DNA from: an uncultured Myxococcales bacterium
Lineage (GTDB): Bacteria > Myxococcota > UBA4151
Assembly: GCA_964013405.1 (NCBI GenBank)
Contig: CAXGWI010000079.1
Span: forward strand, 1 to 16,095
Length of the DNA stretch: 16,095 nt
Reading direction: 5' to 3'
Notes under the pieces: generated by a model
What the model was told of the DNA's origin: nothing
The model's database searches: none
The model's input: only the letters and a program-made list of their open reading frames with translations
Position numbers and translations under genes: made by a program
Part shown: piece after piece, positions 3,088 through 14,788 of the stretch
Numbering within the stretch: the first letter of the stretch is position 1
How the letters are laid out: each line of letters opens with the position of its first letter

Positions 3088-4317
3088 ATGATGCGTACAT
3101 CCCTCGTCCTGTCCTCCCTTTTCCTTCTCTGTGCTTGCCCGGGCGTGGTGCTCGATCAAGATGAAGGTGGTGGTGGCGGTTTGGCACCAAATATCCCCCC
3201 TCCCCAATGTGATCGAGACGGCTTTGATGTGGATTTCTCCACCGCCACCGCCGGTGTGGGCCGGCGTGGCGGGAAGCGCTACCTTCGTTATGATGTCCGA
3301 GGCGATGGCGAGGTCTTTGATAAGCTCGAGGTCATCGCCTATCTCCGGGATGACGAAGAAAGCCTGCCGGCCGGTGACGAACCGATCCGGCTCTTCGCCG
3401 AAGACGGCCTCGCAAACTGTGAGACCTGCGTCATTGCCTATCGGGGCTGTGATGGAGATACCTGTGCCGAAACTTATCTCGCTGATGGTGAACTCCTCGT
3501 CAGCTCGTCCGGGACCGAAGGTGACACCTTCAAGGCGAAACTCGTCTGGGATCGGGCGCAAACGATCTTCCGGGAGGTCGATGGCGACGGTGAGGTCCAC
3601 GAGCGGGGCTATGAGTTCTGCGGCTCTAACCTCACCTTTGAAGCGCCCATTGGCAACGACCGTAAGGGCAGTTGCAGCGACACCGGCGACGGCGCCAAGG
3701 TGGGTAATTTGCTCGCCGACTGGGCTTTGCCGAACTGCTACGGCGATATGGTCGGACTCCACGATGACTGTGGTCGAGTGAAGGCGAAGGTCCTCATGCT
3801 CACCACCGGTTGGTGCCCCGCCTGCGCGACTCGGGTCCCCCAAATGGAGACCGAGATGGCGCCGAAGGCTGCAGACGGTGCGCAAGTCTACTACCTTCTC
3901 GGTGAGATGGGTCGAGGCGAGCCGCCATCGCCAGCGGCGTGCATGGGCTACGCCCGGGGCAAGGGGATCGATCCTGCCCGCATGCTGATCGACAACGCGC
4001 AGATTCCCAATGGCAATTACGTGTCGTTCTACAACACGGTCTACGGTCGACCCTTCGACCAGCCAGACCTGGATCAAAATGACGGCAATGCGGTCAACTC
4101 AGCATTCAACCAGCAGCGGTACACGAAGCTGTCCACCTGCCCGTCCATGGACGACCGGGATGGCGATGGTGCACCGGACTACATGTGGGGTCTGCCCTAC
4201 ACGGCAGTCCTCGACGGCGAAAACAATCGTTACGTTTGGGGCAGCGGGGACTCAACGGTCTGCCCGAGCCCCTACGGCTCCCACAGCCAGGCTGTCACCG
4301 ACCTGTTGAACCGTTAA
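3088..4317 (+). CDS. Cys-rich lipoprotein with C-terminal thioredoxin-like (redoxin) domain
   Basis: AGGAG RBS; hydrophobic N-terminus ending LLCAC (lipobox-like); N-terminal Cys-rich domain with CETC; redoxin-like segment KVGNLLADWALPNCYGDMVGLHD...VLMLTTGWCPAC (CxxC at 3814-3825); DxDGDG acidic motifs. Confidence 0.7.
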   Translation: MMRTSLVLSSLFLLCACPGVVLDQDEGGGGGLAPNIPPPQCDRDGFDVDFSTATAGVGRRGGKRYLRYDVRGDGEVFDKLEVIAYLRDDEESLPAGDEPIRLFAEDGLANCETCVIAYRGCDGDTCAETYLADGELLVSSSGTEGDTFKAKLVWDRAQTIFREVDGDGEVHERGYEFCGSNLTFEAPIGNDRKGSCSDTGDGAKVGNLLADWALPNCYGDMVGLHDDCGRVKAKVLMLTTGWCPACATRVPQMETEMAPKAADGAQVYYLLGEMGRGEPPSPAACMGYARGKGIDPARMLIDNAQIPNGNYVSFYNTVYGRPFDQPDLDQNDGNAVNSAFNQQRYTKLSTCPSMDDRDGDGAPDYMWGLPYTAVLDGENNRYVWGSGDSTVCPSPYGSHSQAVTDLLNR

Positions 4318-4320
4318 ACC

Positions 4321-4647
4321 TTGCGCCCGCCGCTTTGGATCGGACCCCTATTGCTGGTCCTCGCCGCCCCCGCCGCCGCTCAGGATGTGAGCGGTGACGG
4401 TGGCTTAGACGGTGGCATCAGCGACACGGAGATTTGCGACAACTGCAGTCCAGCCGTCGTCGACTTCGAGGCCTGGGATGTGGGCCCGCAGGAGCGTCAG
4501 GATGCTGGTCTGCGGCAACGCCGGGCCCGCCCCGACGCCGGGATCCAAAATGCGCCTGAGTCCGGCGGCTTCGGTTGTAGCACCGGGGTCATGGGCCTGG
4601 AGCCCCTGTTCCTGCTCGGCCTGCTCCGACGTAGAAAGAAAAGGTAG
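4321..4647 (+). CDS. Small secreted protein with MYXO-CTERM-like sorting tail
   Basis: Signal peptide ending AAAQ, a low-complexity DGG/DAG-rich body with one CDNC motif, and the C-terminus GGFGCST-hydrophobic stretch-LLRRRKKR. It fills the gap between its neighbours (3 bp and 6 bp spacers). The TTG start is uncertain. Confidence 0.7.
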   Translation: MRPPLWIGPLLLVLAAPAAAQDVSGDGGLDGGISDTEICDNCSPAVVDFEAWDVGPQERQDAGLRQRRARPDAGIQNAPESGGFGCSTGVMGLEPLFLLGLLRRRKKR

Positions 4648-4653
4648 CGCACC

Positions 4654-5604
4654 ATGGTGGCTCTGCGCTCACTTCTCCTCCTTAGTCTCGCTTGCGTGCC
4701 CTCCGTCACGCCCACCCCCTACGAGCCCTATGCCCTCGACAATCAGGGCTTGATCGACTGTGCCGCGCCCCCGGCCTGTGACATCAACGCCGTGTTTTGT
4801 CCCTGCGCCGATGCGCCCAACTGGCAGTTGGAAGATTTCCAGAATGCAAGCCCACGCAAAGGTGAGACCTACGGAATTCAGGACCTATTGGGCGAAGGCA
4901 AGGTGGTCATCGTCAGCTTCTTCTTTGGTGGCTGCGATGCCTGCCATCAGCAAATGGCTGCCATGCAGATCATGCAGGATAAACTGCATGCCCAGGGTTA
5001 TACGGACGTCGTCTTTATCACCATCAACCAGAAGGAATACTCCAACGACACGGCCCAAGCTGAGTACTTCCGGCGCCGTAGTAGTATTGTTTGTAGCACC
5101 GGCGATTACCCCTCCTGTGACGAGAACGGAACGGTGCTCGTCACCTTCCCCCTCTTCCAGGACACCGTTGAGGGCGGCGGTTGGTCCTCCCATCAAGGGC
5201 AGAAGGACGACATCTTGATCTACCGGGCCGATGGGAAGCTCCACCGCTTCTACGGCTCCATGGAACGAGAGGATCCAGCCGAACGGCAGGATCCCAAGCT
5301 GGCCCTGGAAGCCAATCCCGACAACTTCCGCTTGTTGGAACGGGCCATTCAGTCGGCTTTCGGGGTCCAGGCCTGCACAGATGATAGCGACTGTGAAGCC
5401 ACTGGCGGATGGTGCCGGCTTCCCGATGGCAGCTGTGGCGGCGAAGGGGTCTGCGCCCCTAGCCCCCTCGAAGGCGAGGTCACACAATGCTGGGAAACCC
5501 TCATGCCCCAACCGGTCTGTGGCTGTAATGGCGAAACCTACCTTAACCGCTGTGCGTTAGAGGCGGCCGGGACCAGCCTTCTCTACGCAGGCACCTGTCA
5601 GTAA
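4654..5604 (+). CDS. Lipoprotein with selenoprotein-P-N-like thioredoxin-fold domain (CxxC) and C-terminal Kazal-type domain
   Basis: Lipobox LSLAC; VVIVSFFFGGCDAC; KLHAQGYTDVVFITIN; FPLFQD; WSSHQGQKDDILIYRADGKL; Kazal signature PVCGCNGETYLNRC...AG..LLYAGTC at the C-terminus. Confidence 0.75.
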   Translation: MVALRSLLLLSLACVPSVTPTPYEPYALDNQGLIDCAAPPACDINAVFCPCADAPNWQLEDFQNASPRKGETYGIQDLLGEGKVVIVSFFFGGCDACHQQMAAMQIMQDKLHAQGYTDVVFITINQKEYSNDTAQAEYFRRRSSIVCSTGDYPSCDENGTVLVTFPLFQDTVEGGGWSSHQGQKDDILIYRADGKLHRFYGSMEREDPAERQDPKLALEANPDNFRLLERAIQSAFGVQACTDDSDCEATGGWCRLPDGSCGGEGVCAPSPLEGEVTQCWETLMPQPVCGCNGETYLNRCALEAAGTSLLYAGTCQ

Positions 5605-5618
5605 AGGGAGAACGAGCC

Positions 5619-5981
5619 ATGCGATCGCTCCTTTTGACCTTGGCAGTCCTGAGTTTAGGCGGCTGCAAGGGCTATGACTCGAACAAGAACCTCGATCAGT
5701 TCACCGATGGAGAGATGTCGGCCCTGTGCCATTGGGCCTACCAGCTGCGGGGGGGCTCGAGTCGCCTGCAACAATGCGAGGACGCCGACGGCACCGCGGT
5801 CAGCGTTGTCCTCGATGTAGAGACTGCCGAGTTATCCCGCTGTGTAGGTATGCCGAGACCTGCCTGCCCAGCCATCTACTTTGAAGACTGTACCGAAGCC
5901 ATTGCTAACGATCCTTGCACTGGCGCCGCCAGCAAAGCGTGCTTGGACTGGAGCGACTACTGCGAACTGAAGGAAGATTGA
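5619..5981 (+). CDS. Small Cys-rich lipoprotein, function unknown
   Basis: GGGAG RBS, lipobox LGGC, eight further Cys in the mature region, and a TGATG overlap with the next gene. Confidence 0.75.
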   Translation: MRSLLLTLAVLSLGGCKGYDSNKNLDQFTDGEMSALCHWAYQLRGGSSRLQQCEDADGTAVSVVLDVETAELSRCVGMPRPACPAIYFEDCTEAIANDPCTGAASKACLDWSDYCELKED

Positions 5982-7501
5982 TGCGCCTTACCCTGACAGC
6001 CCTCGCCGCTCTGGCCCTTTTCTTCGCGCCCAACTGGGCCCAGGCTCAGTGTGCAACCTGTGGCAACCCGGCCGTCCAAGCGGGGGGACAGTCCTTCTCC
6101 GGTGAGCAGCCTGGGAGCGGCTTCGCGGCGGAGTTTATCTACGGCTACCTCAATCTCGATGATTTCGTGGACGGGGAAAACAACAACGCCCCTGTTTCGG
6201 CGGAGACCGTCAAAGACCTCATGGGTGTCGACAACTTCCGTATGACTGTCCACTCCACGACCCTGATCGGTCGTTACGGTATCAAGGGTGGACACACCTT
6301 TGGCTTGGTGGTTCCGGCTGGCTATCCCATCACGAACAAGGGTGGCAGTCCGAAGGGTCAGTTCGGCATCGGTGATTTGGATTTAAGCGCCACGCTCAAC
6401 TTGAAGGACCTCATCAGCGATAAACTGCCGGCCCTGAGTCTGAGACTTGGCACCGTCTTACCCACGGGCACCTTCAGCTTTGCGGGAACAGCCCAAGCCG
6501 TGGCCGCCGAGCAATACGTGAGTTTGGGCCGGGGCAGCTATTGGGGTTCGGCCGGGCTCAGCCTCTTTGGCAAGGTCACCGACGACCTCTCTTACTTGGC
6601 TTCGGTGAGTTATCAGCAGCCCTTCAACACCTACAAGACCGATGCTGGGGCTGGGCAGACCGCCACCTTCCGCTTTGGTCAGGAGATTCGGGCCAGCGGC
6701 GGGCTGATCTACCCACTCAAAAAGGGGGAGTGGAACCTCGTCCTTCAGGCCGACTTCTCCCAGCGTTCCGCCGCCATGCAGCAGCTCGCCGGTGAGACCG
6801 AAGCGACCCCCTTCGAAAAGACCGCTGGCAGCAATGCTAATCTCCTGCCTGCCATCAGTTGGACCAAGGACAAGCTGACCTCCACCGTCGCGATGACCTA
6901 CCCCATCTACTTCCAAGTGAAGTCGGTGGACATCATCCCCGACCCCAGCGTTTATCTCTCGTTCAGCTACCGCTTCGGCAGCTCGGCACCGACCGGACCC
7001 AAACCAGCCATCGAGCCGGGCGACGACCCCATCGACCCCAACGTGGTGGGCAAACTGCCGCCCGGCAAGATCACCATCGTGGACTACTGGGCCGAGTGGT
7101 GCCTCATCTGTAAAAAGATCACCCCCGGCATGAAGGCCTACACCAGCGCCTGGGACGATGTGCACTTCATCAAGGTGGACGCCACCAAGTGGGATGTGCC
7201 CGAGTTCGAGAAGTACCTGCCGGCCCAACCGAGCCTGCCGGTAATCGATATCTTCAATCGGGAGGGCAAACTGCATCAGCGCCTCTCCGGCGAGGCCTGC
7301 AGCGAGTTCGTCAACAACGGCTACAAGCTCCTCGATGGCCTGCCCGGCGGTGGCCCCAAAGTGAAAGCCGCCGCGAAGCCAGAGCCCGAGGAGGAGGTGC
7401 CAAGCACGGAGCAGGAGCCTGCGCCCGCTGCTGAGCCGGCCAAAGGCACCACAGGCGAAGTGGAGCCCGAGCCTATCCCGAGCATCGAGATCGCTAACTA
7501 A
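5981..7501 (+). CDS. Outer-membrane beta-barrel (COG4313/MetA-pathway 'transporter'-like) fused to a C-terminal thioredoxin domain
   Basis: Start moved to ATG 5981 (TGATG coupling). Signal peptide ending AQA, then QCATC. Barrel-family motifs GIGDLDLS, LRLGTVLPTG and SLGRGS, alternating amphipathic strands ending YLSFSYRF, a Pro-rich linker, Trx motif ITIVDYWAEWCLIC (CxxC 7100-7111) with FIKVD and LPVIDIF, and a P/E/A-rich tail. Confidence 0.7.
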   Translation: MRLTLTALAALALFFAPNWAQAQCATCGNPAVQAGGQSFSGEQPGSGFAAEFIYGYLNLDDFVDGENNNAPVSAETVKDLMGVDNFRMTVHSTTLIGRYGIKGGHTFGLVVPAGYPITNKGGSPKGQFGIGDLDLSATLNLKDLISDKLPALSLRLGTVLPTGTFSFAGTAQAVAAEQYVSLGRGSYWGSAGLSLFGKVTDDLSYLASVSYQQPFNTYKTDAGAGQTATFRFGQEIRASGGLIYPLKKGEWNLVLQADFSQRSAAMQQLAGETEATPFEKTAGSNANLLPAISWTKDKLTSTVAMTYPIYFQVKSVDIIPDPSVYLSFSYRFGSSAPTGPKPAIEPGDDPIDPNVVGKLPPGKITIVDYWAEWCLICKKITPGMKAYTSAWDDVHFIKVDATKWDVPEFEKYLPAQPSLPVIDIFNREGKLHQRLSGEACSEFVNNGYKLLDGLPGGGPKVKAAAKPEPEEEVPSTEQEPAPAAEPAKGTTGEVEPEPIPSIEIAN

Positions 7502-8162
7502 GCTGCTGCCCAGTCCACGTGGCGGGGCGACCTTGCCCCGGTGCGACCAATTCAAGGACACGGTCACTGAGCCGCTGAGCTTCGACCCGGTCGTGGGTCA
7601 CCATCAGCGCCGCGGCCCCCTCCAATTGGATTTGCTCCCGAAACCAAGCCCCGAGTTCGGAGCGCAGCTCCGTGTCCAAGTTGGCAAAGGGCTCATCGAG
7701 CAGCAGGAGCCGAGGCTTCGGCGCCAGGGCCCGGGCGAAGCCAACCCGCTGCTGCTGCCCGCCGCTGAGTTGGGCTGGAAGTCGATCTGCGAGGGGTGCA
7801 AGCCCCAAGCGCTCGAGCAGGGTCTCAGTACGCGCCTGGGCTTCAGCTTGGCCTTTCAGACCAAAGGCGACGTTCTGGGCCACCGTCATGTGACTAAAGA
7901 GGGCAAAGTCCTGAAAGACCATACCGACCCGGCGCCGCTGGGGTGGCAGGCCGCTCACGTTGTGGCCAGAAAGGTGGATCTCCCCCTCGAGGGGTTCCAA
8001 GAAGCCGGCGATGGCCCGCAGAAGACTGGACTTCCCCACACCGCTCGCCCCCACAACGGCAACGATCTCCCCCTCGGCCAGTTGCAAGGAGAGACCACCG
8101 GCGACCGCTTCGCCGTCGTAGCCAATCGCCAGTTTCTTCAACTCAAGGACCGCTTCAATCAT
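7494..8162 (-). CDS. fbpC: ABC transporter ATP-binding subunit (FbpC/PotA-like, short form)
   Basis: Walker A GASGVGKS, Q-loop VFQDFALF, signature LSGGQQQR, Walker B LLLLDEPF, H-loop VTHD. ATG 8162 follows GGAG and overlaps the permease stop. The symbol is family-level. Confidence 0.88.
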   Translation of the reverse strand: MIEAVLELKKLAIGYDGEAVAGGLSLQLAEGEIVAVVGASGVGKSSLLRAIAGFLEPLEGEIHLSGHNVSGLPPQRRRVGMVFQDFALFSHMTVAQNVAFGLKGQAEAQARTETLLERLGLAPLADRLPAQLSGGQQQRVGFARALAPKPRLLLLDEPFANLDTELRSELGAWFREQIQLEGAAALMVTHDRVEAQRLSDRVLELVAPGQGRPATWTGQQLS

Positions 8163-9891
8163 GGTCACTCCATCGCCTAAGCAGGCTTTGAGCCACAAGC
8201 ACCATCGCCAAAAGCAACAGAGCACTGACACCTAATTCAGCAAAGTGTGCGTCTTCGTGACCGTCATAAATAATGGTCGCCAGGGAATGGTGTCCGGCCG
8301 GCAACAGCATCAGTGTAATCGGCAATTCTTTGATGGCAGCGATAAAGGCCAGCAAAAACCCAGCGGCCGCTGCCGGGGCTAAGGTGGGCATTCGAATCTC
8401 GAAGAAAATCCGAGCGTTGGAAGCCCCGAGCGTTTGAGCCGCCTCCAAAGGTCGAGGGTCTTCCCGTAAAAATGCAGATTTCATCAGGCCGTATGGATGG
8501 GCAAGAAAGCGGAGTCCGAGCCCCAAAATCAGCAGCAGGAACAAGCCCTCCAAAACCTGAGCGATGCCATGGGGGAGGACTTGGACCAACTGGAGGAAGC
8601 CATAGGCCGTCAGCACACCGGGGAGCCCACTGACTCCGTACGCGATGAACTCAGTCCATGAACCCCCACCCCCTCTTTGGGCCGTCCAGCGGGCCGGAAT
8701 TCCGCCCAGAAGCAGAGCGATGCAACCGGCACCGAGTCCCAGGCCTGCAGTGGTGAGTGCGGCTGCACCCATGGGCATGATGAGAAAGGCTAGAGCCATC
8801 GGCACAACGACAAAGGCCACAGCCATCAACACGAACACAAAGGTCACAGCCACGAGCACAGCCACAGGCATGAGCGCAAACGAGACAGGAATGGGCATGA
8901 GCAACATGACCACTGCAAGGGGAAGAAAGCTCAGAAGGCGATAGCTAAGTCCAACCCACGCCGCCATAGGAGTCCCGAAGGCTCCTTCGAGGCCCCACTG
9001 GGCGATGACCACGAGGGGCAGGACCAGGGCTGCCCCCAGATACACGGCTTGCAAGGCGTAGACCCCAACGAGATGAATCGGCTTTGGACGGAGTCGACCA
9101 ACGCTTCGCAGGCCCGCCCGCCCGAGGGCTTCACTGCCCCTTTGGCCCTGCACCCAACGCCCAAGAGCGACCAAGGGCAAGACGGCTGCGACCATCACGA
9201 GCCCCAGGGCTGCGGGGTTGGGGCCCCCATACTTGGCGGCCTGGAACAGCTCCCAGGTCAGCACCCGGGTATTTAGCACCGCGACCGCGCCAAAGTCAGC
9301 CACGGCGTAGAGCAGGACCAGCAGGGCGCCAAAGGCGATGGCTGGCCGGAGTGCCGGCCACTGAACCTCACTCAAAAGGCGCCAGGGCCCCGCACCAAGG
9401 CTGCGGGCAGCCTCTTCCTGATCCCTAGCGAGGGCAGAGATAGCCGAGGACAGGGTGAGCTGAACATAGGGCGCACAGGCAAGGCCAAGCACAAAGACAC
9501 TGGCCCAGAAGCCCTCAAAGCGACCACTCAGGCCTAAGGGTTCTCCCAGGTGCCCTTTCGGAGCCAGCGCCTCCCGTATGGTAATGGCGAGAAGAAAGCT
9601 GGGCAAGACCAGTGGGAGCACAGTGAGGCGGGCGAGTAAGATCTGTCCCGGGTAATGCCAACGAGCTTGCACCCAGGCGAAGGGCGCACCGAAGAGAAAG
9701 GCGACGCCGCACACACAAAGGGCCAAACACAAGCTTCGCAGAAGCGTCCACCAAACGGATGGCCATGACAGGGGCACCGAGACCAAGCCGGGAGGCCCCC
9801 AGAACGCGAGCAAGGTGCCGACCAGAGGCAAGATCCCCAGGCCCAGACAGAGCCAGGTGGCCCAGCGGACCCAAGGAGCGGGCCGGTGCAC
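8155..9891 (-). CDS. fbpB: Iron(III) ABC transporter permease (FbpB/FutB-like, two BPD_transp_1 halves) with an extra hydrophobic insert
   Basis: Two EAA motifs (EEAARSLGA, LEAAQTLGA), plus VLPLVLPSF, ADFGAVAVL and IKELPITLML. The GTG start overlaps the TAG of the binding-protein gene. The symbol is family-level. Confidence 0.88.
   Translation of the reverse strand: MHRPAPWVRWATWLCLGLGILPLVGTLLAFWGPPGLVSVPLSWPSVWWTLLRSLCLALCVCGVAFLFGAPFAWVQARWHYPGQILLARLTVLPLVLPSFLLAITIREALAPKGHLGEPLGLSGRFEGFWASVFVLGLACAPYVQLTLSSAISALARDQEEAARSLGAGPWRLLSEVQWPALRPAIAFGALLVLLYAVADFGAVAVLNTRVLTWELFQAAKYGGPNPAALGLVMVAAVLPLVALGRWVQGQRGSEALGRAGLRSVGRLRPKPIHLVGVYALQAVYLGAALVLPLVVIAQWGLEGAFGTPMAAWVGLSYRLLSFLPLAVVMLLMPIPVSFALMPVAVLVAVTFVFVLMAVAFVVVPMALAFLIMPMGAAALTTAGLGLGAGCIALLLGGIPARWTAQRGGGGSWTEFIAYGVSGLPGVLTAYGFLQLVQVLPHGIAQVLEGLFLLLILGLGLRFLAHPYGLMKSAFLREDPRPLEAAQTLGASNARIFFEIRMPTLAPAAAAGFLLAFIAAIKELPITLMLLPAGHHSLATIIYDGHEDAHFAELGVSALLLLAMVLVAQSLLRRWSDHD
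8776..8856. repeat. Degenerate 27-bp tandem repeat (3 copies) inside the permease gene
   Basis: catgatgagaaaggctagagccatcgg / cacaacgacaaaggccacagccatcaa / cacgaacacaaaggtcacagccacgag, sharing a core aaagg(c/t)nanagcca. Confidence 0.65.
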
Positions 9892-10928
9892 TAGTCGATC
9901 CCCAACTCCCGCAGCAGAGTGAGACTGGCAGCCACATCATTGAGTGCCGCTTGCGTGTTTTGCGCCACCCCTTCGGGCGGTTTCACGTCGGGGTGGAGCG
10001 CCACGCCCTCGACCACAGGATACTCATAGGCTTTCTGCGTAAAGTAGCTCTGTCCTTTGGGGCTCAATAGGAATGCGATCAACTTCTCCGCGTACTCCAC
10101 TTGGTCACTGGATTTCGGAATCCCAACCCCCGCGAGCATCATCACATTGCCCGCATCACCCCCTTGAAAACTGTGATTTGCCGCCTTCAAGCCTGGATTC
10201 GCCGCTTTGATCTTATGTAGGTAATAGTGATTCACCCAGCCCATATCGATCTCGCCTAAATCCACCGCCTTCACTTGGGGCGAATTCTTTGGATAGCGAG
10301 CAGGATTTTGCGCATTCATGGCCGTGAGCCATGTCTTGGTCTTCTCCACGCCCCACAGGCTCCGCAACGCGCTCACATGGGCTTGCATGCTGGCGTTACC
10401 CGGCGCCCAACCGATCCGCCCCTTGTACTGAGGCAGGACGAGATCCTCTAAGCGCTGCGGCAATTCTTCGGCTTTCACCCGTTCCGGGGAATAGACCAAC
10501 ACTCGCAGGCGACCGCTGGTCGCAACCCAATGCTTCTTGGGCCCCCGAGCCGTCTCAGGAACCTTGGCCAAAAGAGCGTCGGGTAAGGGTCGCAAGTGCC
10601 CCCGGTCACCAAGGGTTGTGAGGTAACCGACCGCCTGGGCAAAGAACAGATCGGCATCGCTGCGATCGCCCTCGGTCACCAAGCGGTTCGCCAGCGCTTC
10701 TGTGTTCTTGTTGAAACGTAGCTTCACTTCCACGCCCTCGGTGGCAGCCCATTCCTTCAGGAGCGGCTCCACGAGGATGGCGCTGCGCCCTGAATAGATA
10801 GTGAAGACAGGTTTTTCGACGGCGACTTCTGGGGCTTTCTTAACCCCTTTTTCTGCCGCCGATTCTTGCGGCTGACTGGAACAGGCAAGTCCTGAGCTCA
10901 GACAAAACAAGAGGGCGAATCGTTGCAT
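9891..10928 (-). CDS. fbpA: Iron(III) ABC transporter substrate-binding lipoprotein (FbpA/FutA/AfuA-like)
   Basis: AGGAGA RBS and lipobox GLAC. Motifs TIYSGR, EGDRSDADLFF, GRLRVLVY, KGRIGWAPGNAS, the iron-ligating tandem Tyr in VNHYY, and EYPV. The symbol is family-level. Confidence 0.9.
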   Translation of the reverse strand: MQRFALLFCLSSGLACSSQPQESAAEKGVKKAPEVAVEKPVFTIYSGRSAILVEPLLKEWAATEGVEVKLRFNKNTEALANRLVTEGDRSDADLFFAQAVGYLTTLGDRGHLRPLPDALLAKVPETARGPKKHWVATSGRLRVLVYSPERVKAEELPQRLEDLVLPQYKGRIGWAPGNASMQAHVSALRSLWGVEKTKTWLTAMNAQNPARYPKNSPQVKAVDLGEIDMGWVNHYYLHKIKAANPGLKAANHSFQGGDAGNVMMLAGVGIPKSSDQVEYAEKLIAFLLSPKGQSYFTQKAYEYPVVEGVALHPDVKPPEGVAQNTQAALNDVAASLTLLRELGID

Positions 10929-11108: not shown

Positions 11109-12575
11109 GTGATGATGACCGAGAACCCTTATGCCACCGCTTTAGACGGACTGATCCTCGCTGACCCCGTCGCCGCCTTCTTCGCCTTTTGTCGGGAGCG
11201 AGAAGCCGTGCGGATTCGTCGGGCATCCGGTGCACCGGCTCCCTGGTCCCAGGACGAAATCTTCCAAAGGGGTCGTTTCCTCAACGTGTTTCGGGAAGAT
11301 GACCGCGGCAGTCAGGCATTGCTGCGCTTTGCTAAGCCGGTGGCAAAAGACTTAGAGCGCTTAGTTCATGCCCTCTTCTTTGCTCGTTGGTGCAATCGCC
11401 AATCCACCCTGGACAGCCTCTCTGCTAATCTGCTGGAATCACCGGAGGCATTGATTCCAACTCTTGAGGCCTTGCCCGAGCCGCCATGGTGTAACTGGAC
11501 GGCCTACCCTGTGGAGCCGATCCGCTGGCAGGGGAAACTCTACAGTCGCTGGGACAGCGCCACCGACTTGTTTCGGCGCATCCGCCCGGAACTGACGGAC
11601 GTCATCTGCGCTGCCGGTGGCGATGTCATCAAGGCCACCGAGGCGGTCAACGGCTTGCTTCACATGGACAACGACTTTCCTATCTTTATGGCGGTTATGG
11701 ATCTGGCCTGGTTTCGCCCCGACATCATCGACCCTGCGAGTCCGGTACCCACCGGGATCGGCGCCGCTCCATTTCTGGACCGCCTCGAAAATGCCCTCGG
11801 CGCAAAGGATCACCAAGATACAGCGCAGCGGATGATCGAGCTGCAGCGGACTTTTTGGCCCGAAGCCAAACGCCCCTTTCAACCCATCGATATCGAATAC
11901 CTGGCCTGCGAATGCCGGAAGTATTACAGCTACGTGAACGGCACCAAAGCCTTCGAGGGTAAAAACCGATTTCAAGCGGGGCGCACGGCCCGGCTGAGTT
12001 TTGACCTGGACCTCCCGAGGCCTCAGGAACCTGAGATAACCACCCAGATCCACATCATTGCGGGGGGACCCTGTTCCGGTAAGACCACGCTTCTCAATGG
12101 GCTCGCTGAAGCCGGCTACCGGGTGGAGGTCGAAACTGCGGAACGGATGTTGAAGGAGGGCATTGCCGCTGGGCAGACAGCCCAGGAACTCCGGGCCGAC
12201 CCCCTGCAATGGCAGCAGGAGGTGATGCGCCAGGATTATGCCCTTTTTCATCGCTTACCGGTCGACGAGTTGGTCTTCGCTGACACCTCGTTCATCGAGA
12301 CCCTGGTCTTTGCCGAGCGAGCCGGGATGGAACTGGGCCCCAATCTGCGCCGTTGGCTGCGTCACAAGCGCTATCGGCGCGTCTTCTTTCTCGAGCCACT
12401 CCCGGCCTACGAAGAAAGCGCTGTCCGCATCGAATCCCAGGATCTTGCGAAGCAGATCAGTGCGCAGGTACGTGCCGCCTATGAGGCCTACGACTACGAA
12501 CTGATCCCCGTGCCAGCGGCACCCTTAGCCGAGCGCATCGCCTTCATCGAGTCGTGCCTGAAAGCGGACGGCTAG
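11109..12575 (+). CDS. Fusion of aGPT-Pplase1 / 5-hmdU DNA kinase helical domain (N-term) and AAA_28/NadR-type P-loop NTPase/kinase (C-term)
   Basis: The N-terminal FFAFCRERE..R..R..G..APWSQDEIF...RFLNVFREDDR.S and IDIEYLACECRKY match the aGPT-Pplase1 pattern as I recall it. The C-terminal IIAGGPCSGKTTLL..L...GY..E.E.A, VFADTS, Y..VFFLEP and Y.LI.VP....ERI.FI match AAA_28. GGAG lies upstream; the start could be 11109, 11112 or 11115. Confidence 0.75.
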   Translation: MMMTENPYATALDGLILADPVAAFFAFCREREAVRIRRASGAPAPWSQDEIFQRGRFLNVFREDDRGSQALLRFAKPVAKDLERLVHALFFARWCNRQSTLDSLSANLLESPEALIPTLEALPEPPWCNWTAYPVEPIRWQGKLYSRWDSATDLFRRIRPELTDVICAAGGDVIKATEAVNGLLHMDNDFPIFMAVMDLAWFRPDIIDPASPVPTGIGAAPFLDRLENALGAKDHQDTAQRMIELQRTFWPEAKRPFQPIDIEYLACECRKYYSYVNGTKAFEGKNRFQAGRTARLSFDLDLPRPQEPEITTQIHIIAGGPCSGKTTLLNGLAEAGYRVEVETAERMLKEGIAAGQTAQELRADPLQWQQEVMRQDYALFHRLPVDELVFADTSFIETLVFAERAGMELGPNLRRWLRHKRYRRVFFLEPLPAYEESAVRIESQDLAKQISAQVRAAYEAYDYELIPVPAAPLAERIAFIESCLKADG

Positions 12576-13213
12576 AAGGTGTAACCCATCCGGAAGTTCA
12601 TCACCGGCCAGATCAGACCAAGGATGGGACGGTCCTCGGCCAAACTCAGCCGGAGTCCGGCCTGAAACTCGGTGCAGACGCCCCCCGTCTTCGAAGAGGT
12701 CTTCCCGCCCATCAGTAGGCCGCCAACAACCCCGTAGAAGGGCTCGTCACGGCGGTTTGTCTTCATGCGCTCCAACTCGAGCTAGGCCGAGAGGTGGATG
12801 TTGCGGGTAAAACTGCCGATCAGATTGAGGCGCCCAAAGGCACCGATGTATTGGCGTTCGCCACCCAAATCCTCCACGCCGAGAATGTCGAACAACATAA
12901 ACCCGTCATCCTCCGGGTCGTTCCACGCATTCAAGCCGCCCAAAACCCCAAGGCTCAACGCGGCGTCGATCCGGCGCTCCACGGACACTTCCGCCCACGG
13001 ATGTGAGAACATTGCGCTAAACAGAAGGGTGCGGATCAAGCCGACAGTCACCGTGGTCTGGGGCCCCTCGGCTTTGACGGGCGCCGTCAGTTGGGCAGAA
13101 GGGCCATCATCGACACTGACGGGGGCCTCCGCAGGCCCAGCCGCCTGGGCCAACGCGCTGGGTCCAGCCAGCAGAACAAGGAGTAAGGGCATTGCCATCG
13201 AGCAGCGAGTCAT
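12572..13213 (-). pseudogene. Small outer-membrane beta-barrel protein gene interrupted by a single in-frame TAG (12782-12784)
   Basis: Track ORFs 12782..13369 and 12572..12775 are in the same frame and read through as ...NIHLSA*LELERMK.... ATG 13213 follows GGAG; signal peptide ending ALAQA; amphipathic strands; C-terminal beta-signal NFRMGYTF. Confidence 0.7.
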
Positions 13214-13256
13214 GGGGAGGCTCCAAGCCCTAGCTTCGAGGCTCCACCCAAATTTT

Positions 13257-14720
13257 TCAAGGGCGAGCAGGCCCCAGCCGCAGGGTGGCGGGCCCATCGT
13301 GCGCCCAACGCACAAAGAGCAGCCCAGCCACCTCGTCGTGGGTCCAGCGAGCGCCTTGGGCCTCGACACTCAGCCCCTCGGGAAAGAGTCGTGTGGGCAC
13401 GGCGATCTCCGTAATGCCCCCCGCCTTCGCCAGCAAATCCAGTTGGCCTTCCAGGGTGTCGGGATTCCAACGCCACCCGTTCAGGGCGCCAGCGACTGCA
13501 CTGGGATAGGCCCGCACCAGGGCCTCCACCTGCCCGAACTCGTGTCCACCAGGCCCGGTGATGCTCATCCCCTCTTCGTTCCAGTCGTCCTCGGTGGTGG
13601 AGTACTCCCAGAGTGTAGCGTGCATGCCACTTTCATCCATGGCCTCGTATTGGGCCCGCAAGTAGTCTGCAGCACCGGCGTTGTGTTGCTGAATCCCAAA
13701 TTCCCCGAGAAGTACCGGGAGATCCCAGGCTTCCCCCTTGCCAGCCCAGGCATGAATGCCGCTGACCGTATCCGAACTCCCCGGGACCCAGGTCTGGGTC
13801 ACGAAGACGCTGGGGGCGTAGTAATGGGGCGCAAAGAGCAACCCCTCCCGCTGGGGCCGAGTCATCGCAGTGCTGCCCTCCACCCCTTCGAGTCCTGTGG
13901 TGTCGAAGACGATGAGTGCGTCCGGTGCCACGGTGCGAATGGCGTCTGTCATGCGTTCATAAAAGGGGCTCAGCACTTCCGGGCCCCACTGGCTGGGGTC
14001 TGCGGTGCCGGGTCCAGGCTCGTTGATCACCTCGTAGCCGATGACACCCGGAATGCCCCAGGTCCGGGCAGCCATATGCTGCCACATGGCTTCGAAGGCC
14101 TCCATCAAACCGTCCTCGCCAGCCCAGAAACGATCAAAAGCGAGGCGAGAAGGGCCGCTGAAGTAACCCAAAAACCAATCATGACACTCCGAATGCTCCA
14201 CCGGTTCATAGGGATCGGGGGCCGCCCACAGTGGAAAGCCATCGCCGCAATAGGTGCGGGCAAAAACATCTTGGTGGAAGTCAACGATGGTTCGAATATT
14301 ACGCTCGCCTGCCGCCTCAAGAATACGAGCATAACGCTCTAGAAACACTGCATCATACTCACCCCTAACCGGTTCTAGAGCTTCCCAGGTAAAGGGGACA
14401 CGGAGCACATTCACCCCCCAGCTCTGGGCTTGGTCGAGATAGATCTCGAGGGCCTCTTCAAAAGGCGGCGCATCGGCCTGCAAGGGCGCATTCGATTCGG
14501 CGAAGGCAAAGGGATGAAAGGGCAAAAACTTACTGCGGCCGCCCGCGTTCACCCCGCGCAGCAGGACCTCCCGATCGAGGGCATCGAGGAGTGTCGGCCC
14601 CTGCTGTCGGAGTTGCTGGTGGGCTAACTCCGGTCCCTGGATGGGCGCCTGACAGCCCCAAAAGACGCCAGAGAAGAGTGCGGCATGAACCGCGAGGCTG
14701 GATGGTTTCGATAAGATCAT
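13257..14720 (-). CDS. Glycoside hydrolase family 5, endoglycoceramidase-like lipoprotein
   Basis: Motifs LLRGVN, RVPFTWEALEP.RGEYD, VDFHQD, GDGFPLWA, GYEVINEP (acid/base Glu), FAPHYY, LGEFG (nucleophile Glu) and ATLWEY, then LVRAYPSAVAG leading into a C-terminal beta-sandwich. Lipobox FWGC follows ATG 14720. Confidence 0.88.
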   Translation of the reverse strand: MILSKPSSLAVHAALFSGVFWGCQAPIQGPELAHQQLRQQGPTLLDALDREVLLRGVNAGGRSKFLPFHPFAFAESNAPLQADAPPFEEALEIYLDQAQSWGVNVLRVPFTWEALEPVRGEYDAVFLERYARILEAAGERNIRTIVDFHQDVFARTYCGDGFPLWAAPDPYEPVEHSECHDWFLGYFSGPSRLAFDRFWAGEDGLMEAFEAMWQHMAARTWGIPGVIGYEVINEPGPGTADPSQWGPEVLSPFYERMTDAIRTVAPDALIVFDTTGLEGVEGSTAMTRPQREGLLFAPHYYAPSVFVTQTWVPGSSDTVSGIHAWAGKGEAWDLPVLLGEFGIQQHNAGAADYLRAQYEAMDESGMHATLWEYSTTEDDWNEEGMSITGPGGHEFGQVEALVRAYPSAVAGALNGWRWNPDTLEGQLDLLAKAGGITEIAVPTRLFPEGLSVEAQGARWTHDEVAGLLFVRWAHDGPATLRLGPARP

Positions 14721-14788
14721 GGCGGAACTAAGGGCGTGAGCGCACAGCAACGCAAGCGGAATCGCCCATTTTTTAGCCTCGAGACCTC

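Follow-up and report, generated by a model that had tools for sequence, protein, structure and literature searches.

A predicted outer-membrane beta-barrel joined to a thioredoxin is encoded at positions 5981..7501 of the window, by which we mean the whole stretch of DNA analysed (16,095 nucleotides from an uncultured Myxococcales bacterium). The protein is very probably a cysteine-containing member of an uncatalogued selenoprotein family, a barrel with a dedicated thioredoxin, some of whose members carry CxxU or UxxU where the window protein has CxxC. At the level that the evidence supports, neither NCBIfam 20.0 nor the covered part of a 2026 table of 119 prokaryotic families (PMC13188914) contains this selenoprotein family. 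With CxxC, CxxU and UxxU all occurring naturally at a single position, the family offers a series for asking what selenium adds, and the window's all-cysteine, single-chain version is an easy form for expression.

The fusion gene and its protein

The gene (forward strand, as are all features of the protein given below) was delimited from the list of open reading frames and from profile and relative searches, and encodes 506 residues. Its start ATG overlaps the TGA of the upstream gene (5619..5981, +), which encodes a small Cys-rich lipoprotein-like protein and occupies the same place in three family relatives. A promoter and terminator scan gave hits at chance level only. The signal peptide spans residues 1-22 (5981..6046), its A-Q-A end (residues 20-22) being placed by eye with the same layout in relatives, and the mature protein begins QCATC, as a preliminary description of this DNA had read it. 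The CxxC motif (C24-C27, 6050..6061, TGT..TGT) is the cysteine form of the CxxU/UxxU found in the family. It lies in an N-terminal arm of 24 residues before strand 1 (6047..6118), defined from the models and the family alignment, with the family consensus C/U-x-x-C/U-x-N-P-x-L-P-x-G. A predicted 12-stranded beta-barrel of the COG4313/FapF fold follows (6119..6976), and YLSFSYRF (6953-6976), previously proposed to close the barrel, coincides exactly with the last modelled strand. A Pro-rich linker of about 31 residues (6977..7069, from sequence and model) leads into the thioredoxin domain (7070..7333), predicted to be periplasmic, with WCLIC at 7097-7111 (C374, C377) and L-P at the cis-Pro position. 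The match to PF00085 (E 1.1e-8, 35.5 bits against a cut-off of 23.5) bears out the preliminary description of a thioredoxin following the barrel in the same reading frame. The acidic, Pro-rich tail that it also described is present at 7346..7498 (11 Glu and 10 Pro in 51 residues), and is not conserved. A third cysteine, C440, was ruled out as essential, being kept in 15/111 rows.

The fusion is shared by seven full-length relatives at 25-88% identity and recurs at 19-36% identity. A contig from run X5 spans 6678-7393 across the junction with 34 substitutions and no gap. An assembly artefact is ruled out by the seven relatives and the gap-free contig, which also settles the earlier concern that the fusion might be unique to this assembly or unsupported by reads. 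The split, adjacent genes that had been anticipated elsewhere occur at 12 loci, and as a pair on contig C50 of the window's own genome.

Barrel fold and position of the arm

Two AlphaFold2 models of the mature protein, with mean pLDDT of 89 (83 alignment rows) and 90 (121 rows), both place twelve long strands at mature residues 25 to 310, followed by the thioredoxin. The best structural match of the model is the COG4313 channel PDB 4rl8 (Z 26.3, rmsd 2.6, 258 residues aligned), followed by FapF (PDB 5o65, Z 26.0, rmsd 2.4) and then by autotransporters at Z 19, in agreement with the original proposal of a COG4313-type outer-membrane barrel. At the level of sequence, the PF13557 profile gives no match to the window protein and matches 25/83 relatives (best 6e-8), with L096 scoring above the cut-off. 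The nearest Atlas cluster to the window protein (score 0.97) has PF13557 in 16% of its members, and a PDB sequence search with the window protein returned only thioredoxins and disulfide isomerases among the matches listed. No aromatic-catabolism cluster is found among the recurring neighbours of the barrel loci.

Residues 1-14 of the arm have pLDDT <50 in both models, even with 121 rows, and model residues 10 onward align with 4rl8 from its residue 1. The two termini of an outer-membrane barrel both start on the periplasmic side, and the 24-residue arm would therefore enter the lumen from that side. The first 14 residues of 4rl8 fill the lumen on the periplasmic side (PMC4493636, partial text), and the plug of FapF turns back to the periplasm (PMC5557850, partial text). 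Structural alignment of both models also places the arm along the linker that threads the autotransporter pore (model residues 1/2-310 against EspP 1013/1015-1300, at low confidence), and this modelled alignment hints, with equally low confidence, at a path towards the outside.

Probable selenocysteine forms among relatives

A phmmer search against cluster representatives listed 150 hits, 99 of which match a barrel profile built from them. Genomic DNA was inspected because most of the listed hits begin just after the CxxC, without a signal peptide. In public annotations the gene is cut after the TGA and goes by the name hypothetical protein or thioredoxin; the named entries from Hyalangium and Archangium begin past the motif. 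When 401 genomes of the phylum were searched with a profile, 39 matched at E<=1e-30. With U standing for an in-frame TGA, the protein-found loci read CxxC in 9, CxxU in 9, UxxU in 9 and UU in 1; the motif is missing from four distant barrels, and another locus is cut. In the TGA loci, the TGA stands directly after an intact signal peptide, and the 19 TGA loci align with the 9 cysteine loci at the motif. A SECIS-like hairpin, under criteria taken from the available part of PMC13188914 (16-37 nt after the TGA, G in the loop, energy <= -7.5), follows the TGA in 19/19 TGA loci against 0/7 cysteine loci tested, at a spacing of 17 nt in 17/19 and over a background of 1-23% within genes. No such hairpin stands behind the window's CxxC. 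Of the 19 TGA genomes, 18 contain selA (fragmented in one of them), and the nineteenth has selB.

The family can also be reached from the DNA. A scan of species genomes for motif plus hairpin, a pattern that itself required neither a barrel reading frame nor a signal peptide, gave at least 120 hits, 80 of which were examined. Of these 80, 78 run into a barrel reading frame after a signal peptide; 42/80 are UxxU and 38/80 CxxU. The examined hits come almost entirely from records titled Myxococcota or Deltaproteobacteria, two of them cultured Pyxidicoccus, and their genomes overlap in part with those of the protein-found loci. Every row with an N-terminus (61/61) has C or U at the arm motif, and the fused thioredoxin is of the cysteine type in all loci read. 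Left out of the counts were L102 (a chance match), L065 (no barrel frame), L023 (cut N-terminus), the distant motif-less barrels L024, L026, L028 and L031, and five loci at contig ends. Judged from the DNA, the TGA codons in the arm most likely encode selenocysteine.

The window protein itself has TGT codons and no TGA, and is not a selenoprotein by codon or by machinery: searches for selA, selB and tRNA-Sec in the window genome (94% complete) found none, and selA was found in none of five family relatives (59-93% complete), all of them CxxC. Since three CxxC copies sit in selA-positive genomes, the cysteine forms do not arise solely from missing selenocysteine machinery. That relatives appear to place selenocysteine at this site makes it very likely that the CxxC of the window protein is chemically active.

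Several individual loci deserve comment. The UU variant (L018:1414-2841, +) has two TGA codons side by side immediately behind the signal peptide, with a SECIS-like hairpin 26 nt further on. L065 has a signal peptide, CAGU and a hairpin, and its frame enters an unrelated sensor-like gene; it is a truncated or rearranged copy. In one genome (G052), selA lies in several pieces (C16:99439-100205, C22:13-564), possibly through assembly frameshifts, and selB is intact. Two records titled Enterobacteriaceae and Klebsiella (L084, L085) hold genes that group with those of the myxobacterial clade and adjoin the same redoxin gene; the records are probably mislabelled or misbinned.

The thioredoxin companion

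Among the pattern loci, 73 were decidable: 55 have a fused thioredoxin, 12 a split one and 6 neither, so that the thioredoxin is fused or directly upstream in 67/73. In the split form, a thioredoxin lipoprotein with a metal-binding domain is encoded directly upstream of the barrel (12 loci). The active site is CxPC in 91/111 thioredoxin-bearing rows, and L-P stands at the cis-Pro position in 93/111. The CLIC of the window protein had been singled out as an atypical dipeptide; it is indeed present and rare (LI in 2/111 rows), and at that frequency it is ruled out as a family feature and carries no meaning at the level of the family. When the profile of the fused thioredoxins was run against the window genome, the first non-self match was the C50 partner (77.5 bits, against 46.8 for the next). 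Because the closest match in the genome is the thioredoxin that adjoins a second barrel, the fused domain is likely to serve its own barrel specifically, and by sequence the fused and split forms appear to make up a single dedicated group. At L087:2402-2938 and nine similar loci, thioredoxin lipoproteins carry a repeated Cys/His-rich domain with no Pfam match, which may be a metal-binding module.

Two subfamilies

A FastTree phylogeny of 98 barrels (midpoint-rooted, with motif columns removed and neither outgroup nor clade test) divides them into a His-rich subfamily B, in which UxxU prevails, and a subfamily A made up of one UxxU clade and the window's CxxU/CxxC clade. Within the window's clade, CxxC is scattered over several separate places, which suggests repeated exchange between selenocysteine and cysteine. 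Conserved histidine motifs and His-rich linkers mark subfamily B, some members of which also end in a Cupredoxin_1 or HMBD domain, and the deeper-branching forms look metal-linked. The histidine motifs occur in no member of the window's branch, and the window barrel has two histidines.

The window genome also contains a member of subfamily B in split form and in its cysteine version: at C50:2341-4109, an HMA-thioredoxin lipoprotein is followed by a His-rich barrel starting CSGC-TNP. This second barrel was missed by a genome search with the single protein and found with the profile. The related barrels L024, L026, L028 and L031 start His-His, with no Cys/Sec motif and no thioredoxin. They are a possible outgroup, and their His-His start is a hint of an arm that serves as a ligand site.

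Neighbouring redoxin genes

Three further genes precede the barrel on the forward strand. The gene at 4654..5604 encodes a redoxin lipoprotein-like protein with GGCDAC (SelP_N/AhpC-TSA plus Kazal), and that at 3088..4317 a second one with WCPAC (AhpC-TSA, E 1.5e-4, below the cut-off). Between them, 4321..4647 encodes a short exported protein with a tail that we take to be MYXO-CTERM-like, and travels with the two redoxin genes in the family. Homologues of 4654..5604 flank the barrel in other clades, and some of them read UxxC. The NCBIfam model NF053656, for a TUGYCR-motif thioredoxin-fold (seleno)protein, concerns this partner and not the barrel; it matches 4654..5604 weakly (41.6 bits) and a UxxC homologue at 46.1 bits, against a cut-off of 100. 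In the window's clade, a redoxin lipoprotein gene adjoins the barrel at 25/30 loci, and its product comes in two architectures that are unrelated to each other: 15 resemble 4654..5604 (6 of them UxxC with a hairpin of their own), and 10 have Cys-rich repeats.

The link between barrel and redoxin is not obligate. In the window's family, barrel and redoxin block are on separate contigs in three genomes; in family f24 the redoxin is unlinked in six genomes (with a sister barrel type instead in three of five checked); and no redoxin lipoprotein neighbour is found in 8 loci of the all-UxxU sister clade. Redoxin and barrel co-occur in 16/16 cases, a count that is partly circular (the profile came from barrel neighbours) and drawn from kin that are not independent. 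A complex prediction for the barrel-thioredoxin protein with the redoxin domain of 4654..5604 scored 0.00, which has no bearing either way. The block 3088-5604 as a whole is kept in the family (L186-L188) even where the barrel is elsewhere.

Proposed role and alternatives

A disulfide that is structural only was rejected on the selenocysteine forms: exchange with selenocysteine makes it unlikely, and the arm is therefore probably catalytic or a metal ligand. The fused thioredoxin, as a constant companion of the reductant type on the predicted periplasmic side, is likely to keep the arm reduced, by analogy with TlpA and its clients ScoI and CoxB, and the CxPC of the family resembles the CVPC of TlpA (PMC6669012, partial text). 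On the best reading, the barrel would serve as a thiol/selenol relay through the outer membrane, a role that we regard as somewhat short of probable. In such a relay, a DsbD/ScsB-like protein would feed the fused thioredoxin, which would reduce the CxxC of the arm (CxxU or UxxU in selenium users) whenever the arm slipped out of the pore; the arm would then re-enter the pore and reduce the partner redoxin lipoprotein or other cell-surface disulfides. The window genome holds on contig C200 a gene that we take to be DsbD-like. In the DsbD relay itself, electrons pass from one thioredoxin fold to another by way of a dithiol that is not part of such a fold. As DsbD could feed a periplasmic redoxin directly, a barrel is best explained by an acceptor on the outside. 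Metal features are no longer seen in the window's clade, where second redoxins are present. We know of no thiol route that carries reducing power across the outer membrane; if the relay is real, Gram-negative cells have one of their own. More tentatively still, the family may be an outer-membrane counterpart of DsbD in myxobacteria, with a swinging dithiol, selenenylthiol or diselenol arm that is recharged by its own thioredoxin and feeds surface redoxin lipoproteins, hidden until now as gene callers stop at selenocysteine codons.

The main rival is a metal-ligating channel, which the preliminary description had also raised. Here the reduced arm would bind Cu(I), Hg(II) or a similar soft metal and pass the ion to periplasmic carriers, with the thioredoxin merely keeping the ligands reduced, for which TlpA acting on ScoI and CoxB is a precedent (PMC6669012, partial text). 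The idea suits the sister subfamily, with its histidine motifs, His-rich linkers, C-terminal Cupredoxin_1 or HMBD domains and upstream HMA-thioredoxin lipoproteins; outer-membrane efflux and cupredoxin genes neighbour some loci, and the covered part of Table 1 of PMC13188914 gives UxxU as the motif of a metal-binding selenoprotein. It does not carry over well to the window's clade, which is without the histidine motifs and the metal domains: the two histidines of the window barrel form no motif, its neighbours are redoxins rather than metal carriers, and the separate C50 pair in the same genome suggests different jobs for the two barrels. For the window protein we consider metal transport possible though rather unlikely; were it true, the protein would be a metal channel carrying its own reductase.

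If the disulfide instead gated transport, letting a small molecule through or allowing the neighbouring lipoprotein to be exported in the manner of FapF, the closest folds would be apt, one being an uptake channel with a plug and the other a secretion channel in which the plug has to move, and the adjoining genes do encode exported multi-domain lipoproteins. A CxxC loop at the free tip of the arm would, however, alter the shape of a plug little, selenocysteine, doubled in so many of the examined pattern hits (42/80), would fit catalysis or metal binding better, and there are barrel-only loci with a thioredoxin but no export candidate. We hold gating to be unlikely. Least probable, in our view, is that arm and thioredoxin both stay in the periplasm with the barrel as their anchor and nothing crossing the membrane, the roles then being peroxide or sulfenic-acid scavenging or the repair of outer-membrane proteins. 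The poor order of the arm in both models and the N-terminus of FapF, which turns back into the periplasm (PMC5557850, partial text), would fit such an arrangement, but the barrel motifs are well conserved across relatives, the fold keeps a full pore, and a lipid anchor would presumably be simpler.

Relation to known systems

Neither the barrel fold nor the thioredoxin is new by itself; it is for their combination that no described counterpart is known. The COG4313/PF13557 channel Pput2725 (PDB 4rl8) has no C-terminal domain and shares 12% identity with the window protein, and the available part of its structure paper mentions no cysteine or disulfide (PMC4493636). FapF (PDB 5o65) has the same fold as the window barrel, at 18% identity, with a PTG motif and a movable plug (PMC5557850, partial text). 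Its N-terminus forms a coiled coil and its plug is helical, whereas only 24 residues precede strand 1 in the window protein, and FapF has neither a redox motif nor a thioredoxin; the window, in turn, has no fap neighbours, and redoxins and an ABC transporter instead. DsbD and ScsB resemble the window protein in joining a membrane domain that bears a Cys pair to a periplasmic thioredoxin that serves thioredoxin-fold proteins (PMC3322552, partial text). They are helical inner-membrane proteins, whereas the window protein is a predicted outer-membrane beta-barrel with its Cys pair on a free arm, and there is no sequence relation outside the thioredoxin, so the comparison is one of working principle only. 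TlpA of Bradyrhizobium is likewise a dedicated periplasmic CxPC thioredoxin that keeps a client dithiol reduced; unlike in the window protein, its clients ScoI and CoxB are separate, are not channels and, in the part of the source available, have no selenocysteine (PMC6669012).

Two outer-membrane entries occur in the covered part of the selenoprotein table, the TonB-dependent receptor FCYXU (NF049945, CxxU) and the GSU2204 family (NF041027). Both are other families with no fused thioredoxin listed, and 0/104 scanned proteins match either in NCBIfam. Among the entries covered in Table 1 of PMC13188914 (119 families) there is no COG4313-type barrel; the available parts of PMC12013277 and PMC13326102 add no such outer-membrane selenoprotein, and NCBIfam 20.0 gave no barrel family model for 83 + 21 proteins. 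A literature search, conducted mostly outside subscription journals, found nothing relevant on the combination of barrel, thioredoxin and selenocysteine.

Other genes in the window

Convergent with the barrel gene, 7494-10928 (-) encodes an ABC transporter (binding protein, permease and ATPase) that presumably resembles iron or thiamine uptake systems. It was rejected as a partner of the barrel, being on the opposite strand and not a recurring neighbour. Further along, 11109-12575 (+) encodes a 5-hmdU DNA kinase helical domain (PF18723) fused with an AAA_28 domain, and 12782-13369 (-) an exported protein with no Pfam match, adjoining a GH5 glycoside hydrolase gene at 13257-14750.
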